Shown here one piece after another: positions 7,870 through 49,032 of a DNA stretch of 64,000 bases; positions within the stretch are counted from its first letter, which is position 1, and every line of letters begins with the position of its first letter. Source of the stretch: Kondoa subrosea (lineage: Eukaryota); NCBI GenBank assembly GCA_039545335.1, contig BCIN01000006.1:620001-684000 (forward strand), in the 5' to 3' direction. The notes beneath the pieces were generated by a model, which made no database searches, was not told the origin of the DNA, and worked only from the letters and a program-made list of their open reading frames with translations. Position numbers and translations under genes: made by a program.

Positions 7870-9906
7870 ATGCAAAAGCTCACAGCATCTTTATCGGAGT
7901 CAAGTGACAAGCCATGCTACAGCTTCGAAGTCAGCTCGCTGTCCGCATGATTGTCAGATCTGATGTCCGATTTATGCAATTGACAGTATTTCCCGCCTGT
8001 AACAGAGCAGGGCATGTCAAATTTGATGGATCGAATGGTTAGGATGTCTAAGTTGCAGCCAAGTTGGGTTGCAGTGACATGGGGAGCTGGAGGAACCACT
8101 CAAGAGAGAAGTCTGTACTTGGCTGAAGCAGCAGTGAAGGAGACTGGCCTCAATCCTTGCTTACATCTCACGTGCACCAACATGGAAAAGTCGAAATTGG
8201 ATCAAACGCTTGCCGTACGTCGAGATGAGTCATTTCAAAAAGCAGGGCTGAATTCTTACTAGAAAGCCAAACGACTGGGTGTGAAGAACATCTTAGCGCT
8301 TAGAGGAGATCCTCCGAGAGGCGAAGAATACTGGGTTGCTGCTGATGAGCAATTTCAGCATGCTGCAGACTTGGTGCGATATATTAGGCGAGAGCATGGC
8401 GATTATTTCTGCATCGGAGTAGCAGGTAATTTCTCAGAGATGATGATCATCTTACTTTCGCTTATCTTCACCGTCAGGCTATCCGGAAGGTCATTCTGAT
8501 GCCGAAGACAAATCCCAAGAAATACATTATCTCAAAGCTAAAGTCGATGCAGGCGCAGACTTTGTAGTCACTCAACTGTTCTACGATGTGGATGTATACC
8601 TAGCATGGTACGAAGCATGTCAGAAAGCTGGCATTTCAATACCGATTATACCTGGAATCATGCCCATACAATCGTACAATTCTTTCCGTCGCATGGTGAA
8701 GCTTTGCGATTCCTCCATACCAGATCAAATCCTAGAAGATCTGGAACCGATCAGGGTGCGATTGGTCGAAGGTCACATCTCGCTATGCTGACCTGCTATT
8801 TAGAACGACGATAATAAAGTCAAAGAATATGGAGTCAAATTAGCAATAGAGATGGTGTCCAAGTTGCAATCAAAGGGATTAAGTAACTTTCATTTCTGTA
8901 CTCTGAATTTGGAGAAATCGGTCAAGCAGATCATCGAAGGTCTATCTTGGACTACAAAGCCAGCTACTAATGGCAAACCAGACTTCGTATGTCATTCAAG
9001 CTCAAAACCATACTGCACTAATCTCTCCCCTTAGGCTGACCTACTTACCGCCCAACCTCATTCTTCCGTCTCAACTCGAAATATTGGTCAATGGGATGAA
9101 CACCCTAACGGACGTTTCGGAGATTCTCGATCACCAGCTTACGGAGAACTCGATGGTTGGGGTGTATCGCTCAAAACTTCTTCAACTCGAGCTCTACAAA
9201 ATTGGGGTCGACCTACTTCCATACAAGACATTTCAGCTGTTTTCGCTTCCTACCTTGAAAACAAAGTGGATAGTTTACCTTGGAGCGATATGCCTCTCAT
9301 GGAAGAAACCGCTGCTATAGTTCCACAATTGCTGAGATTGACAAAGGAGAAACATTGGTGGACTGTTGGTTCTCAACCTGCTGTAGATGGTGCTTCTTCG
9401 GAAGACACAACTTATGGTTTCGGACCCAAAGGTGGTTATATATACCAAAAAGCTTTTGTAGAGTTTTGGGTTGAGGAAGAGGAAGTAAGGAAGTTGGCAA
9501 AAAAGATTGAAGCACGGAAAGCGAAAAGCGGAGTCAGGGAGTTGACTTTCTATGCTGCTGGAAGAGGCGAAGATCAATTCTTGACCAACATGGAAAAGGG
9601 TGATGCAAATGCTGTCACATGGGGAATCTTTCCTGGTAAAGAGATCATTACAACCACTTTGATCGAAGAGATGAGCTTCAAGTCATGGAAGGTGTGCTTG
9701 CACTCTTGTGTTCTGCTTTGCAAATCTGATTGCGTACTCAGGACGAGGCATCATCGATATGGAATGAATGGGAATTGCTCTATCCTCAGAAATCGGAGAC
9801 CAGGCAACTCCTGCGCGATCTAGCTGAAAAGCGGTGGCTGATTAGTATAGTACATCATGACTTCAAGAAGGCATCAGCTTTGTGGGATTTCTTACTAGAT
9901 GCATGA
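7870..9906 (+). CDS. Methylenetetrahydrofolate reductase (eukaryotic type with C-terminal SAM-binding domain)
   Basis: [100 protein letters not shown] (MET12/MET13 family). Divergent from PAN2 across ~210 bp. Confidence 0.95.
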
Positions 9907-9958: not shown

Positions 9959-10725
9959 TCATTCCGATGCAAGTTCCTCTGTGACATTTCCTCCGCTACC
10001 ATCTACAGTTTCCTCGTCCGACACAGCCTCACGAGCTGATGCGTCCGAAATATCTTCATCCAAATCTCGCTCGACCGGGTCCGAAGGTATGATTGGCGGA
10101 GGAGGTTGATTTCTTCGTGCTACTGGAACATGAATAGTAGGTTGCGGCAACGGATCTGGCGGAATGGTGTCGGGCGGCAGGGTGATGCCAGCTTCTTCTG
10201 CAGCTGCACCAACTCTCGGATGCTGGCTTTGCATAGGCGGCTGAGGGGATCCTTCACTACAAAGATCGAGCAGAGTTAGTCACTGCGTGCGGCTTGGCTC
10301 AAGCTGATTACGCACTCGTGGGCAAGCGTGTCCTGGTCAGATAGTCAGCTTGCACGCGTTCGCTCGGAAGAAGATGAACTCACATCCATCTCATCCTCAT
10401 GTGTTGTCAGACGACCTATAGGTATCAGGAAGCTATGTCCATGAGCTCGAATATCATGTTGCTGTGCAAGCATAAATCAGCTCTGCCTGTCTTGCACGCA
10501 AGAAAACGAAGAAAAGAGTCTTACGCCCTGCTCTAGGTCCATCTCCTCGTCCGACAGAGCGTCGGCCTGCTTGGAAAGCATGCGAGAAGGGTGAGAGATG
10601 GGTCTCGGCTGATGCTGCCTTCTCTGCCTGCTGTACACAGAGCCAGGGACATTGTTATAATGCAAAGGTATAGGCACGCTGAGGTCAGGCAGCTGAGACG
10701 GAGGTGGCAGTAAGCTGGCAAACAT
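9959..10725 (-). CDS. APC15/Mnd2-like anaphase-promoting complex subunit
   Basis: Spliced reading MFASLLP...ADALSDEEMDLEQG|QHDIRAHGHSFLIPIGRLTTHEDEMD followed by an acidic tail. Resembles ANAPC15 (N-terminal FPSLFP, LVPIGK, acidic C terminus); recognition from memory, not from a search. Confidence 0.6.
10158..10601. repeat. Inverted repeat, copy A (internal part of APC15-like gene); partner at 14152-14576
   Basis: Reverse complement matches 14152-14576 closely; both encode MQSQHPRVGAAAEEAGITLPPDTIPP. Confidence 0.9.
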
Positions 10726-10851
10726 GCTGGGTCGCTGCTTAGAGAAGAACGAGCAAAGGAAAGGATATTCTTAGCAGAGCGATACCTAATGATGATGCCT
10801 ATGAGGCGACCTGCATTGAAAGCAAGACAGCAAATCGGCTTAAACCCAATA

Positions 10852-11064
10852 CAAGCAGGAATTCTAGCAGCTACACATTGTGCGGAAGACAACTAGCAGC
10901 TCGAGTCAAAGCTTGGTATCCACATGAGGAACTGAAGGACGCTGCTCTCTTCGACTTCCTCATGCTGGTCTCTCTGTCTATCCTCTCGCTGACTTCCCTG
11001 GAACGGAGTTTGCTCATGTGAATCAACGAGAAAAGCTACTGAACTCTGATCATGACCAGCTTAT
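10852..11064. repeat. Diverged direct repeat, copy 1 (partner 12943-13163)
   Basis: Shared blocks CAAGCAGGAATTCT, AGCTCGAGTCAAAGCTTGGTATCCA, GAACGGAGTTTGCTCAT.TGAATCAACGAGAAA.GCTACTG, TGACCAGCTTAT. Confidence 0.85.
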
Positions 11065-11147
11065 GTACGCGCTATCGCGCCAAAATTCAGGCTACTGCTG
11101 ATCAACTCAGGCTTTGAGATGCAACCGCGCTGTGTTGTAAATCTCGC

Positions 11148-11906
11148 GATGCTGTATTGGGTTACGTAATCAGCCTGCGTGAGCTGAAAACCGCTCATCG
11201 CGACTATTGGCTGATACCAAATCACGTCGTTTGCTTTAGTCGTCTGAAGACATCTATCTCTGCTGAATTGCCGAAACGAAATGTGCCTCGTTCGCCCGAA
11301 CGGCCCTAAGATTGCCCTTGTTGTCTAGGTCTACGACTCAAGCTAGGCTGCCAGTCAATACTCTGCCATCTGAAAGTAGATCGTAGCCATGTGGTACTTC
11401 GTGTCAATCATCAATCTCAAGATTGGGGCTCGTCATGCATTTTTTTGCGACTTCATCCTGGTGCACTTCAACAGAGCGATACAAGGATGCCTCGAGACCA
11501 AACAGAGCCTGTTCTCACTCTTCATTTAACCAGTCGAATGCAATATACGCTCCGCAGATCAAATCTCAGGTTCTCGAAGATGGACAGGCAAACTAGGCAT
11601 CTTCGGCGATCGTTCGGTACCGCAAGACATTGATCATTCAACACACAAAGGAGCGACCATCCTAAGCGAATACATGCATTACATAATACTGTAATTGAGA
11701 TCGACAATGTACAGCAAAGCGCTGATCCTCATCGAAGCACCCTTCCAGCAAGGTCTACGAGTTTAACACCTCCGCTCGTTCGGTTGAATAGTCTAGCGGT
11801 TAGGACGTAAGCGATCATCATGGCCTCGTCCTAGATCTCTTCTCATTCTTCTACGTTTTCAGACCAGATTTTGATACAATACTGTTGACCTTCTGGTAAC
11901 CTGGGT
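11148..11906. repeat. 759-bp direct repeat, copy 1 (identical to 13362-14120, offset 2214)
   Basis: Sequence appears identical on reading, apart from an N at 13406; the ORF track reports identical ORFs 11391/13605 and 11522/13736. Confidence 0.95.
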
Positions 11907-11976
11907 GTGAGTTGGACCGAATCTTGTCAACCAAATTCATCTGACTTCTCAATACAGTCGAAACCCAGTCCAACCT
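11782..11976 (+). tRNA. tRNA-Gln(UUG) copy 1 with three introns: exons 11782-11806, 11863-11874, 11891-11906, 11958-11976
   Basis: Joined exons give GGTTGAA TA GTCT AGCGGTTA GGAC A CCAGA TT TTG A T TCTGG TAAC CTGGG TTCGAAA CCCAG TCCAACC T, a full cloverleaf with one A6:C67 acceptor mismatch. Introns: GTAAGC..TTTTCAG (56 nt), canonical 37/38 (16 nt), GTGAGT..CTGAC..ACAG (51 nt). Confidence 0.8.
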
Positions 11977-12942
11977 TGCGTCAACGTAAAGCTGGCAAAC
12001 ATGCTCGGACCCGGTAAACTTCTTGGAGCAAAGCGAGCAAGCGAGATATACATGTGGTATGCGACATCCATAGGATCATCGACTCTGGAAGAAGTACTGC
12101 GGTATAACTGCTCAGCACTCGACACGAGCAAGCAAGATCTCCTTCGGGTGGATAATTTGTCGAGATCAATTAGTCGCTAGAGTCAATCTCGCCGAGAAAG
12201 CGATGGAGCTTATTTGCCATTCACACCAGACCAACCTCATATTCGTCCTCAGACTGATCTGTTCTAGTTCCCTCTCTTCAGCGTGCTTCGAGCATGAGCT
12301 TCGCTTGTACCGTCGGGCAACCTACTCGCGAGAAGACCTGGCTATATCACCGCTCTCTATCAACTGACGCTGACTGGCAACTATGCTGTGTTCAAAGTCT
12401 CCTTTGCGCTGTTTTGATCGCATCTCTGGTCCAAGACCGCACCCGAATTGATGCTGATAGCGACAACTGTTGGCTTATATTGTTTGAAATGCTTACTCTG
12501 GTCATCTTTCAAGTCAATTATGACGTATTGGCAAAATGTACTTCTTTCGCCCTAATGAGGCAAACGTCTCAATCAATTCGGCATCATCCATATATCAATT
12601 AGCCTTGAAAGTTACTGCTGATCGGCTCAGATAGCATTGTTATTGCGGATGCATCCTATCAATACCAATTTGGTCTGACTATCATCTCTCTAATTCATCA
12701 TGGGTGGTTTCACTGTAAGCGATCTAAGGCTGAACTTCTTGAGACAGAGCCTGACATTAATTGCCACCGCAATATAGACAGGTTTGCAAACCGATTTCCT
12801 GAGTGTGATCGGCTTGACTGGTACAGTTGGCTGTCTAGCAACGTTTCGACATTGTGTACCGGTCAGGTGCTTCCCGTATAAATGCATTATACGAGATTGC
12901 GTCTGAGATGATGTCTGCACAAGAGGATACTGATACGTATCG

Positions 12943-13163
12943 CAAGCAGGAATTCTTGGGCTAGACAATGCGCTGAAGACAATGGGTAGCTCGAGTCAAA
13001 GCTTGGTATCCAAATAGAAATGTCAAGGTCGCTGCTCTTCTCGACGTTTTCAGGCGGGTCTCTCTGCCTTTCTCTCGATGGCTTCTCTAGAACGGAGTTT
13101 GCTCATCTGAATCAACGAGAAATGCTACTGGAGAGTCTGGACTATGATAATGACCAGCTTATT
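12943..13163. repeat. Diverged direct repeat, copy 2 (partner 10852-11064)
   Basis: Same conserved blocks as copy 1, with substitutions and small indels. Confidence 0.85.
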
Positions 13164-13361
13164 CACGAGGCAACACAGTCGGATTCGCACTAAATGTCTG
13201 CGTGTGCTGCGGAATGTCTGCTCAGTCGTTGCTGAGGAAAGACATCCGCCCAATCCAATCTTTCTCTGACTCTTCTCTATCTCGTCATGTTGGGACGCTT
13301 TCTCACTTAACAGCACTACTATGATCAACCCAAGGTTTTCTCGCCCTGTTCAAATTCTGGA

Positions 13362-14120
13362 GATGCTGTATTGGGTTACGTAATCAGCCTGCGTGAGCTG
13401 AAAACNGCTCATCGCGACTATTGGCTGATACCAAATCACGTCGTTTGCTTTAGTCGTCTGAAGACATCTATCTCTGCTGAATTGCCGAAACGAAATGTGC
13501 CTCGTTCGCCCGAACGGCCCTAAGATTGCCCTTGTTGTCTAGGTCTACGACTCAAGCTAGGCTGCCAGTCAATACTCTGCCATCTGAAAGTAGATCGTAG
13601 CCATGTGGTACTTCGTGTCAATCATCAATCTCAAGATTGGGGCTCGTCATGCATTTTTTTGCGACTTCATCCTGGTGCACTTCAACAGAGCGATACAAGG
13701 ATGCCTCGAGACCAAACAGAGCCTGTTCTCACTCTTCATTTAACCAGTCGAATGCAATATACGCTCCGCAGATCAAATCTCAGGTTCTCGAAGATGGACA
13801 GGCAAACTAGGCATCTTCGGCGATCGTTCGGTACCGCAAGACATTGATCATTCAACACACAAAGGAGCGACCATCCTAAGCGAATACATGCATTACATAA
13901 TACTGTAATTGAGATCGACAATGTACAGCAAAGCGCTGATCCTCATCGAAGCACCCTTCCAGCAAGGTCTACGAGTTTAACACCTCCGCTCGTTCGGTTG
14001 AATAGTCTAGCGGTTAGGACGTAAGCGATCATCATGGCCTCGTCCTAGATCTCTTCTCATTCTTCTACGTTTTCAGACCAGATTTTGATACAATACTGTT
14101 GACCTTCTGGTAACCTGGGT
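13362..14120. repeat. 759-bp direct repeat, copy 2
   Basis: Matches 11148-11906; identity ends exactly at tRNA T-loop position 54 (CTGGGT). Confidence 0.95.
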
Positions 14121-14139
14121 TCGAACCCCAGTTCGACCT
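13996..14139 (+). tRNA. tRNA-Gln(UUG) copy 2 with two introns: exons 13996-14020, 14077-14088, 14105-14139
   Basis: Joined exons give GGTTGAA TA GTCT AGCGGTTA GGAC A CCAGA TT TTG A T TCTGG TAAC CTGGG TTCGAAC CCCAG TTCGACC T. All stems pair (acceptor includes T4-G69), A box TAGTCTAGCGG and B box GGTTCGAACCC are intact, discriminator is U73. 56-nt GT-AG intron 14021-14076 and 16-nt canonical intron 14089-14104. Confidence 0.9.
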
Positions 14140-14144
14140 TTTTT
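14139..14144 (+). terminator. RNA polymerase III T-run terminator
   Basis: TTTTTT immediately after the acceptor stem of tRNA-Gln copy 2. Confidence 0.75.
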
Positions 14145-14151
14145 GGCCTTT

Positions 14152-14576
14152 CCATCTCGCACCCTCGCATGTAAATCCTCCAAGCAGGCCGACGCTCTGT
14201 CGGACGAGGAGATGGACCTAGAGCAAGGCGTAAGACTCGCTCCTTTAACTCCGTGCAGGATGAGCTGATTTACGCTTGCACAGCAACATGATATTCGAGC
14301 TCAACGGACGGCTTCCTGATACCTATAGGTCGTCTGACAACACATGAGGATGAGATGGATGTGAGTTCATCTTCTTCCGAGCGAACGCGTGCAAGCTGAC
14401 TATCTGACCAGGACACGCTTGCCCATGAGTGCTCAATCAAGCCGCACGCAGTGACTAATTCTGCTCAATCTCTGCAGTGAAGGATCCCCTCAGCCGCCTA
14501 TGCAAAGCCAGCATCCGAGAGTTGGTGCAGCTGCAGAAGAAGCTGGCATCACCCTCCCTCCTGATACCATTCCGCC
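14152..14576 (+). pseudogene. Inverted, truncated, frameshifted duplicate of the APC15-like gene
   Basis: Lacks the 5' and 3' parts. Exon 2 reads CAA CAT GAT ATT CGA GCT CAA CGG ACG GCT TCC TGA (1-nt net deletion, premature stop) versus QHDIRAHGHSFLIPIGR in the intact copy. Confidence 0.75.
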
Positions 14577-14599
14577 TCATTTGTTCGCACACATCAACA

Positions 14600-15459
14600 G
14601 TAGCGATGCCAGTGTTGAGCAGTTTGGATCCATCACCCTCGGACACGTGAGATGTCGTGTCATCGATCCCGTTGGCGAATTTACACATCAAGATTTACCT
14701 ATTCTCTCGCTGATACATAGTCCTCGGCATCTTTTCAGCTTGTTGTCCTCACATCGGTAGCTGCGCTTACCTTGATCTGCTTAGCTAGATGTCTGGCTTT
14801 CTTGTTTCCTTCCTTTTCATCTGCAGCCGAAGGCAATCTGACCGTCCCTAGTTCAACGGCATACCTATTCTCACAATCAGCCTTCCTTTTGAACACTGAT
14901 GGCAAAGGCGGACTTACGTCTGTAGATCTCCTTTAAGCGCTTCGATCTCTTCTTCCAACTTGTTCACTTCTTCCGTATATTTCATTTCCTCTTCTTTCAG
15001 CTTCTCCAATACTTCTTCAAACGACATGATAGTGAGCTTAGGCTTCCGTATGCTCCTGAACCCATCTTCTTCCTCTGCTCCCTCAACCTCGAGATCCGAT
15101 CCGTCTTCTTCTTCTTCAGACGAGGAATACTCTTCCGCTGCAGGCAAAGTGGAAGTGAATTCATGAATGTTCTTCTTCACTTTCCCTCTGACCGTAGTTC
15201 GTTGCTGGATCAGAATCGCATAAAGTGCAGTCAGACTTTCTCTATTCAATCCTTGCTACTTAGCTTTTCGCATATGCATATGTCAAACAACGCACAGATT
15301 GACAGGTCTGTTTGGATTGGCTCTGGTTAAAGCTGCTGAAATATCTTGAATCGGGATAGAATCCAGCAAGAGGGTAGAGTCGAGGAGAATTCGAGTGATT
15401 AGTGATTTAGCTGTGATTTCGTTTGAAGAAGAAGAGCGGCGAGGACGTTTGTTTGACAT
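14600..15459 (-). CDS. Hypothetical protein with acidic stretch and coiled coil (3' end uncertain)
   Basis: Start MSNKRPRRSSSSNEITAKSLITRILL at 15459; exon 14914-15249 (EEYSSSEEEEDG...LEEEIEALKGDLQT) is bounded by splice signals. Confidence 0.5.
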
Positions 15460-47409: not shown

Positions 47410-49032
47410 CTAAGTCATGAGAACACCCAGGACAAGTATGGCAAAGAACTCGGAAACCGAATATCGCAACGAAGTTAAACCAGGTGAACCTATAATCAAA
47501 GGGCTTGATGATGAATGGAGATATATATATATACAAGAGCACTGACCAGCAAGTGTCATACTTCCCGCGTCTTTCGAAGATGTAGCCATTCTCGAAGTTC
47601 GAGCGGAGGTCGATGTTGTTTCGGGATCCGAATCGTCTTCTGGTAATTGTGACAAGACGGCTGCGGATGCGTCTGAAGGAGAAGATGCGCTTGCAGCTTG
47701 CTGAAGTTGCGCTTCCGGAGAGGGTGTAGGAACACCGGTATTGACTGGAGTCGAGACAGCTGAATTTCCAGCGACAGTACTCCCTCCAACATTTGCTTGT
47801 GGTGCTGCCGCTGCTTTGCCATTATATAACGGAGGCCCAGCTAGAACACATGTTCAAAAACCGCTATCGCTGGCAAGAGCGACTTACGGATCTGGTAGCC
47901 TGTCATATCGCCTGACCAGATATTTACGGCGTCCACAGTTATGGTAGGAATCTTGACAGCATTTTGTGTAGGCTTCAGAGTTCCCGAAGATGCGAGCTGA
48001 ATCTACGTATAGACGCTCAGCGCATTAGCAGCTAGCAAGCAAACAAAACTTGCCTGGACGCAGACCTATCATATTATTTTAGTCAAAACTCTGCAAGAGA
48101 AGGAATACGCTGACAGGATAAGACTGAGGTGCACCATGAAGAGCAATCAGCTCTTCTCTCAGTAAATAAGCTCCCGGCGCAAAATCAGATGGAATAGTAG
48201 TAGAGTATTTCTGTCAAATTCTATTAGAATACGATAAGAGCGTTTCGTTGCGCTGAGAAAGCTCACCAGATTTGCAGTAATCTGGGCAGTTGCCCATTTC
48301 CCATCTGTGAATCCTGCTTCATCGGTTTTCACCCAATCCAAGGTGGAAGCATCAACACCAGTACATGAATCGCCGCTGAAAGAGCTAGTCAGAATTAGAC
48401 TTGATTTCAAGTTAACAGGAAATACCATGAAGCCATATAGTGCAATACAGGTCCTGTACAAGTGATCAGCAATCGCTCATCTACTCACGAGAAGAAGATT
48501 CACCTAGATGTTCTCCTGGCCAAGCGTTCCAATTGAAAGTCACAGTTGATCCACCTTTAGCAGCAGCATGTGTAGAAGTCTTGACTTTATCGCTATTGCA
48601 AGCTGCTGCTTTATCGGTCAAAGCTACCGGTCCATCTGAATTAACTTCTCTGACTGCTAATTCTGGCATTGGATCTGGAGCTGAATACCACAGAATCAGA
48701 GTAAGGCTATACCAGCGGTCTGATCAGAGATAGACTTACGAGGCGCATAAGGCTAGAGAGGCAGGCTCAGCAATTAGTGTTCCTCCATGACAGAAAATAC
48801 GGACTATATATGCATCGTACGATTGTCCGTCCTAAATAAAGGCATAGAAGGTCAAGAAGACTTCATCTTGTCGAGACGAGAACGTACGATATCGACTGTC
48901 TATGAGTTCATATATTAGTCTGCTTATTCAATAAGCGTAAATGGAATCGAAGCGTACCTTGACATGACCATGAGCCAGAACCGTGCTTGAGAATACGATA
49001 ATGGATAAAAGGCCATTCGTCAAAAGAAACAT
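47410..49032 (-). CDS. AA9 lytic polysaccharide monooxygenase with Ser/Thr linker and hydrophobic C terminus
   Basis: Signal MFLLTNGLLSIIVFSSTVLA followed by mature HGHV (His brace); DGPV; ACN; FNWNAWPGEHL|GP; LIALHG|A; QFYP-like and YPGAYTK-like segments; C-terminal FFAILVLGVLMT*. Confidence 0.85.

Follow-up and report, generated by a model that had tools for sequence, protein, structure and literature searches.

A candidate mRNA-type intron in the T-loop of one of two tRNA-Gln(UUG) paralogs from a Pucciniomycotina-like basidiomycete

Introduction

Can a nuclear tRNA gene carry an intron of the mRNA type? The introns of eukaryotic nuclear tRNA genes are taken as one kind, situated at the 37/38 site and cut by the Sen endonuclease, and the sole exceptions that we know of are the BHB-type introns of a red alga and of a nucleomorph. 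Spliceosomal introns do occur in genes for other small RNAs, those for U3 among them. Here we describe a basidiomycete locus with two tRNA-Gln(UUG)-like genes, one of which is split in its T-loop by a 51-nt insert with a donor, a branch site and an acceptor, and we ask what kind of insert this is and how it may have arisen. A full-text literature search whose coverage leaves out most subscription journals found no report of a spliceosomal intron in a tRNA gene.

In the part of PMC5855946 on which we draw, the intron of S. pombe U6, a gene transcribed by Pol III, is described as excised by the spliceosome; as many as four mRNA-type introns occur in fungal U6 genes, and such introns are present in the U6, U2, U1 and U5 genes of R. 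hasegawae (Tani & Ohshima 1989, 1991; Takahashi 1993, 1996; Canzler 2016, all as summarised there). According to the same part of that source, snRNA-gene introns are scattered, lineage-specific and otherwise unconserved, and reverse splicing followed by reverse transcription is the usual and favoured model of their origin; Bhattacharya et al. 2000 is cited there for spliceosomal introns in the nuclear rRNA genes of some fungi. For the nuclear tRNA genes of C. merolae and for the Guillardia nucleomorph, the relevant section of PMC3728597 reports BHB introns at ectopic sites, as many as three or four in a gene. Introner-like elements of fungi, as characterised in the section of PMC3609843 used here, represent recent intron gain; they bring their own splice signals, number hundreds of similar copies and exceed regular introns in length.

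Results

Two tRNA-Gln genes interrupted by GT-AG inserts

The window, by which we mean the whole 64-kb stretch of DNA analysed, is nuclear basidiomycete DNA containing an MTHFR gene (about 7876-9903) with short GT-AG introns. The best protein matches of MTHFR were to Mixia osmundae (61%) and to Microbotryomycetes (about 55-59%), and none of the 120 matches listed was a close relative. Mixia belongs to Pucciniomycotina, as does Rhodotorula hasegawae (= Erythrobasidium hasegawianum).

Two tRNA-Gln(UUG)-like genes lie on the + strand, copy 1 at 11782-11975 and copy 2 at 13996-14138. Exon 1 of copy 1 (11782-11806, +) comprises tRNA positions 1-25, with the 5' acceptor strand and the D arm, and is identical to 13996-14020 of copy 2. 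It is followed by I1 (11807-11862, +), a 56-nt GT-AG insert between positions 25 and 26 that opens with GTAAGC and runs through a pyrimidine-rich stretch to TTTTCAG; the I1 of copy 2 (14021-14076) has identical letters. Exon 2 (11863-11906, +) covers positions 26-54 with the anticodon TTG and holds a canonical 16-nt tRNA intron at the 37/38 site, placed by ARAGORN at 11875-11890 (+). Between T54 and T55 lies the insert under study, I2 (11907-11957, +; 51 nt), after which exon 3 (11958-11976, +) supplies positions 55-72 and the discriminator T.

Copy 2 (13996-14144 with its terminator, +) has I1 and the 16-nt canonical 37/38 intron and is without I2: its T arm and acceptor strand run uninterrupted (14115-14138), with a B box at 14118-14128, and are followed by the discriminator T and five more T (TTTTTT, 14139-14144). 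The two copies are identical up to T54 (11906). Their mature forms, derived in silico, differ at three positions (60, 67 and 69), and the best match of these forms, 60/72, was to fungal-like tRNA-Gln(UUG) genes from metagenomes. As a separate observation, I1 contains CGTCCTA, a 7-nt complement to the exon end plus the first G of I1 itself, a match that 65 of 1000 shuffles reached.

Standard tools missed both genes. ARAGORN found no tRNA in the raw window or in raw copy 1 and, with introns allowed on the raw window, gave nothing but a poor "Asn" call on copy 2. Once I1 had been removed in silico from copy 2, or both I1 and I2 from copy 1, it called tRNA-Gln(ttg) with the 16-nt canonical intron; in copy 1, the 18-nt 3' piece completes both stems and matches its paralog at 15 of 18 positions. 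Rfam gave no match at the gathering threshold and none at E <= 10 on 11000-15000, and across the whole window at E <= 1 its only match was a chance-level snoRNA at 47678-47746. Among 2938 GT..AG candidate excisions in the 64-kb window, a tRNA across the junction came from two overlapping ones, both starting at the I1 of copy 2; these candidates recovered copy 2 alone and no tRNA hidden elsewhere in the window by a GT..AG insert. A random-excision control yielded a junction-spanning tRNA in 0 of 2938 trials.

I2 has exact boundaries and a full set of splice signals

The first-pass annotation of this DNA had described a 51-nt insert at 11907-11957 in the T-loop, precisely absent from the paralog, and re-reading of both copies confirmed this to the base; the donor, branch and acceptor letters that it quoted (GTGAGT, CTGAC, ACAG) are likewise all present. 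The exon of copy 1 ends ...CTGGGT at 11906, and the GTRAGY-like donor hexamer GTGAGT occupies 11907-11912, from the first base of the insert. The branch-site match CTGAC (CTRAY) has its A 14 nt before the insert end. At the 3' end, CAG at 11955-11957 (ACAG) places YAG on the last base, and the 18-nt tRNA 3' end resumes at 11958-11975. The bases flanking I2 differ and its boundaries cannot be shifted, so only exact GT...AG removal restores the 7-nt T-loop. The predicted consequence of exact excision also held: the 7-nt loop was regained, and with I1 also removed ARAGORN called tRNA-Gln(ttg). No target-site duplication was present in the sequence at the 11906/11957 boundaries.

The probability that a random 51-mer of window composition carries all three signals at fixed ends (GTRAGY at the first base, YAG at the last base and CTRAY 4-22 nt before YAG) is 2.4e-6. 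In the real, intron-rich window, 6 of 127,898 51-mers do so, I2 among them. Chance origin of the I2 signals is excluded. The earlier argument against coincidence had rested on two independent GT-AG inserts; coincidence is indeed excluded, but the pair consists of I1, which is common to both copies and lies inside the conversion tract described below, and I2.

I2 resembles local spliceosomal introns and forms no BHB

Protein homology defines five MTHFR introns in the window; their lengths are about 48-57 nt, and their CTGAY-like branches lie 10-17 nt upstream of YAG. A strict donor/branch/acceptor pattern occurred 45 times in the window, mostly at lengths of 45-65 nt, against a mean of 10.9 in 50 shuffles, so that about 11 matches per window are expected by chance. 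I2 (51 nt; GTGAGT; CTGAC; CAG) fits this strict pattern end to end, and both I1 (56 nt; GTAAGC; pyrimidine tract; CAG) and I2 are typical of local introns or better. These features support the assignment of I2 as a spliceosomal-intron sequence whose length and signals are those of local introns.

The 4-bp central helix of a BHB formed in 0 of 16 registers for I2 and in 0 of 16 for I1; the canonical 16-nt intron formed it in 1 of 16 registers, a figure to be read against the 408 of 2000 random segments that form this helix by chance. Minimum free energy (MFE) folds showed no BHB for the GT-AG inserts. With neither a BHB register nor a BHB fold for I2 or I1, an ectopic intron of the endonuclease type is rejected.

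Within the 64-kb window we found no second copy, similar segment or donor intron for I2 beyond the level of shuffles. The many similar copies that mark an introner family are thus missing, as judged within the window and by contig depth, and the combination of no similar segment in the window with single-copy read depth indicates that I2 is not a recently active introner. Elsewhere, the first 10 bases of a + strand intron-pattern match at 12715-12777 are the first 10 of I1, probably by chance (BLAST E = 2.2).

Some short complementarities inside I2 were also recorded. GTTGGAC at 11911-11917, just after the donor, is complementary at all 7 nt to GTCCAAC in the 3' acceptor strand (11968-11974), and 11 of 1000 shuffles reached this. 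The complementarity of TCAACC in I2 to GGTTGA of the 5' acceptor lacks significance, being reached by 207 of 1000 shuffles. The idea that I2 is a decayed copy of the tRNA 3' end was discarded, as local alignment was not significant (222-578 of 1000 shuffles reached the score).

An old duplication and a later conversion tract

Self-BLAST aligned 11139-11906 (+) with 13352-14120 across 769 nt (99.5% identical). This conversion tract reaches up to I2 and no further, its final base being the one just before the insert. In an older duplicated flank, 10852-11041 and 12943-13130 share 82% identity. About 1.1 kb of upstream sequence was co-duplicated with the tRNA, and homology stops at the tRNA 3' end. 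The 3' exon of copy 1 agrees with copy 2 at 15 of 18 positions (83%), and its 3/18 differences are close to the 18% divergence of the flank. Most simply, the whole tRNA would have been part of an old duplication, and a recent gene conversion would then have run as far as the 51-nt heterology and halted there. Because the 99.5% tract stops at I2, the presence/absence of I2 is probably older than the conversion.

These data bear on the proposal in the first-pass annotation that I2 reflects a recent gain or loss of an intron. Its mechanistic part is compatible with what we see, since exact GT|AG presence/absence fits both gain by reverse splicing and cDNA-mediated loss; the dating is not supported, given 3/18 exon differences and a flank of 82% identity. 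Divergence of the 3' exon at about the rate of the neutral flank also speaks against copy 1 being under purifying selection as a tRNA. Intact splice signals in I2 could have persisted without selection and are no proof of it: at the divergence of the two copies, about 1.4 hits are expected in 14 key positions, and we estimate the chance of survival at about 1/4.

An inverted repeat, 10158-10575 (-) against 14179-14576 (+), is 89.5% identical. Together, the inverted and direct repeats make this area a patchwork of duplications. The inverted duplicate corresponds to the 5' part of an intron-containing gene that had no Pfam match. Its left copy (10158-10575) opens with an ATG-led ORF; the right copy starts about 30 nt past the copy 2 terminator and has a stop codon directly after the corresponding ATG. 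No tRNA relic was seen upstream of the inverted gene copy, at 10575-10860.

Read contigs support the two-copy structure

We compared the assembly with Logan contigs from two DNA runs of one sample, which is possibly the assembly's own source, so that this comparison is not independent of the assembly. A 759-nt contig corresponds to both 11148-11906 and 13362-14120 and has about twice the depth (121 against 57 in one run; 299 against 135 in the other). A single-depth contig of 1367 nt (11877-13243) passes through I2 with no alternative letters in both runs, and the long flanking contigs have the same single depth (54-56 and 142-146, compared with 57 and 135 for the contig through I2). The shared segment ends at 11906/14120, where a branch is present in the read graph. 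Only 30 letters overlap on the left side of the I2 junction, which makes this graph-branch support and not a strict bridge.

The depth pattern fits a true two-copy repeat with two continuations and does not fit two alleles. By contig depth, I2 is single-copy. Around 13207-13233, in the second duplication unit, a stretch of 29 letters and a loose end appear among the read contigs, maybe a local repeat or assembly uncertainty, and the single N of the window lies at 13406, well away from the tRNA.

Pol III marks differ between the copies

Copy 2 keeps an A box, a B box, the discriminator T and a T6 terminator, and its acceptor stem has 7/7 pairs, one of them U·G. A B-box regular expression matched copy 2 only (14118-14128); the B box of copy 1 is split by I2. 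The acceptor stem of copy 1 has 6/7 pairs, with an A6·C67 mismatch, and no T-run terminator (at least 4 T) follows copy 1 within 325 bases (11976-12300). Conversion may explain the mismatch: the 3' strand of copy 1 would pair perfectly with a G6, which may have been overwritten.

Copy 1, as read from these features, does not look like a working Pol III gene. Its split B box, missing terminator and acceptor mismatch make it probably weakly expressed or decaying, and we think that it is at best weakly expressed and possibly a relic. Copy 2 is the candidate working gene. With an otherwise intact-looking Pol III gene structure and I1 alone, it is also the better candidate for a spliceosome-dependent tRNA.

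Two B-box look-alikes were noted in copy 1, one inside I2 (11914-11924) and one across the 3' end of I2 (11955-11965). Each agrees with the B-box consensus at 8/11 positions, which may be chance (p about 0.05, our own estimate). In S. pombe U6, the B box sits within the intron.

Discussion

Origin and maturation of the interrupted tRNA

The reading that we favour, with a probability just short of one half (about 0.48), is that I2 is a genuine U2-type spliceosomal-intron sequence, that its place in an old tRNA-Gln(UUG) paralog, exactly between T54 and T55, is the product of an RNA-level, spliceosome-mediated event in a Pucciniomycotina-like basidiomycete, and that copy 1 is probably weakly expressed or decaying. 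An RNA-level spliceosome event is the most likely origin of I2, and two routes would lead to the present state. On the gain route, a tRNA-Gln transcript would have taken up an excised intron by reverse splicing, and reverse transcription and recombination would then have returned the sequence to the gene. On the loss route, the intron would once have been in both copies, and copy 2 would have lost I2 exactly through recombination with a spliced cDNA. In either case, the 769-bp gene conversion would later have homogenised the copies up to I2, whose heterology would have stopped the tract.

If copy 1 is transcribed, the spliceosome can in principle remove I2 and I1, and the tRNA endonuclease the 16-nt canonical intron, to give a Gln(UUG) cloverleaf. 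By analogy with fission-yeast U6, copy 2 could mature from a Pol III transcript that is spliced by the spliceosome. A broader proposal is that two splicing machineries serve one nuclear tRNA: the spliceosome would remove one or two mRNA-type introns (at the D/anticodon junction and in the T-loop) from a Pol III or a longer Pol II precursor, after which the endonuclease would remove the 37/38 intron, and the presence/absence of I2 would be a fossil of reverse splicing or of cDNA loss. This proposal is possible, and we hold it to be doubtful at present. An mRNA-type intron in a non-coding RNA gene, now at a tRNA, is in our view a good lead short of proof.

Alternative explanations

A fully functional three-intron gene would have both copies expressed, and to yield mature tRNA-Gln(UUG) the spliceosome would have to take out I1 and I2, and the tRNA endonuclease the 37/38 intron. 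The exact restoration of the cloverleaf on excision is in keeping with this, as are the A box, B box, discriminator T and T6 terminator retained by copy 2; U6 offers a precedent for spliceosomal splicing of a Pol III transcript in the material drawn from PMC5855946, and the lack of a branch in the middle exon of the 759-nt double-depth contig hints weakly that this exon is not shared by a copy lacking I1. In copy 1, however, the B box is split, the terminator is missing and the acceptor stem contains an A·C mismatch, the 3' exon diverges at the neutral rate, and such an architecture was seen in 0 of 116 metagenomic matches to a pattern for the tRNA 5' half (described below), so that we judge this explanation unlikely. 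The tRNA pieces could instead be exons of a Pol II non-coding or UTR transcript, running for example towards the duplicated gene that starts at about 14170, with I1 and I2 as its ordinary introns and the tRNA as a captured passenger that makes no tRNA. This would agree with the lack of recognisable coding sequence in 10600-14150 (0 Pfam families above cut-off for 14 ORFs spanning 9959-14760), with further + strand intron-pattern matches at 11179-11239 and 12715-12777, with about 1.1 kb of co-duplicated upstream sequence whose homology ends at the tRNA 3' end, and with a copy 1 without Pol III marks. We count it as a serious rival but give it a low chance: removal of each intron restores the tRNA to the base, which is expected for insertion into a tRNA and not required for a passenger; the T6 run at the tRNA end of copy 2 is typical of Pol III; and about 11 intron-pattern matches per window are expected by chance.

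An insertion at the DNA level, whether of filler DNA, a transposon fragment or an introner-like element, into a dying tRNA pseudogene would leave splice-like signals that were never spliced. The patchwork of direct and inverted duplications and the crippled look of copy 1 would suit such an event. It becomes improbable in view of full signals at both exact ends (2.4e-6 by chance), a second such insert, I1, in the same gene, unshiftable boundaries with no target-site duplication, and single-copy depth with nothing similar in the window, which speaks against a recently active introner family. A further rival is an ectopic tRNA intron like those of archaea or Cyanidioschyzon, which the tRNA splicing endonuclease cuts at a BHB; it has a parallel in the multiple ectopic introns, T-loop included, that the section of PMC3728597 consulted here describes in nuclear tRNA genes of C. 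merolae. We consider it highly improbable for this locus, where the 4-bp helix appeared in 0/16 registers for I2 or I1 while the canonical intron passed, MFE folds were without BHB, and the GT...AG, branch and pyrimidine signals would be left unexplained. That the 11906/11907 junction is an assembly artefact absent from the genome is also a very slight prospect. The junction does sit at the end of a two-copy repeat, and there is one N at 13406; against this, the read contigs, possibly from the assembly's own source, show the shared segment at about twofold depth in both runs (121 vs 57; 299 vs 135), and a contig of single depth that begins 30 nt to the left of the junction crosses I2 and continues for another 1.3 kb.

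Comparison with known systems

The favoured reading of I2, a spliceosomal-intron sequence in a tRNA paralog, places it closest in form to the introns of snRNA genes as presented in the part of PMC5855946 cited above. As in those genes, a short GT-AG sequence with canonical donor, branch and acceptor lies within the conserved body of a gene for a small stable RNA, and exact excision restores that body, here the tRNA-Gln(ttg) cloverleaf with its 7-nt T-loop. The R. hasegawae snRNA case comes from Pucciniomycotina, the subphylum of the best protein matches to the window. Unlike an snRNA, the host here is a tRNA, which lies outside the spliceosome active site and keeps an endonuclease-type intron too. 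Splicing is shown for S. pombe U6 and putative for the inserts described here, and copy 1 may be a pseudogene.

The likeness to C. merolae and Guillardia tRNAs (PMC3728597, the section on ectopic introns) is that a nuclear tRNA gene is split at non-canonical sites, the T-loop included, and is thereby invisible to standard tRNA finders; the difference is that their introns are of the BHB type and cut by the endonuclease, whereas I2 and I1 form no BHB and carry spliceosomal signals. Fungal rRNA-gene introns share with I2 a spliceosomal type within an abundant structural RNA gene that is not transcribed by Pol II, but both the host RNA and the polymerase (Pol I for rRNA) are different. In contrast to introner-like elements, I2 is 51 nt long, single-copy by depth and without a look-alike in the window.

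Splicing of I1 and I2, if it occurs, would link the making of tRNA in this lineage to the spliceosome, and standard tRNA finders would systematically miss such genes, as ARAGORN and Rfam failed on the raw sequence here. The locus would also offer a clean, datable case of intron gain or loss by the much-disputed reverse-splicing and cDNA routes, in an RNA that was never in the catalytic centre of the spliceosome. Even if copy 1 is merely a pseudogene, I2 would still be the footprint of a spliceosome-mediated event on a tRNA.

Metagenomic relatives of the tRNA

Our examination of interrupted tRNAs covers one locus pair in a 64-kb window, and was extended by a scan of metagenomes. An I2-specific pattern gave 0 matches. 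The pattern for the tRNA 5' half gave 116 matches at 114 loci; ARAGORN placed a tRNA at the match start in 101 of them, 72 being tRNA-Gln, and 5 of the 15 matches without an ARAGORN call were cut by contig ends. Inspection by eye of the first 100 nt showed no insert, either at 25/26 or within the T-loop, in any of the 116 matches. There is no close relative among them, so they say little about orthologs. Canonical introns are common in tRNA-Gln(UUG) of this sequence family, as the loci L002, L008, L022, L025, L043, L066, L106, L107 and L110 show: these fungal-like genes for tRNA-Gln(UUG) have a 37/38 intron of the canonical kind, 8-28 nt long.
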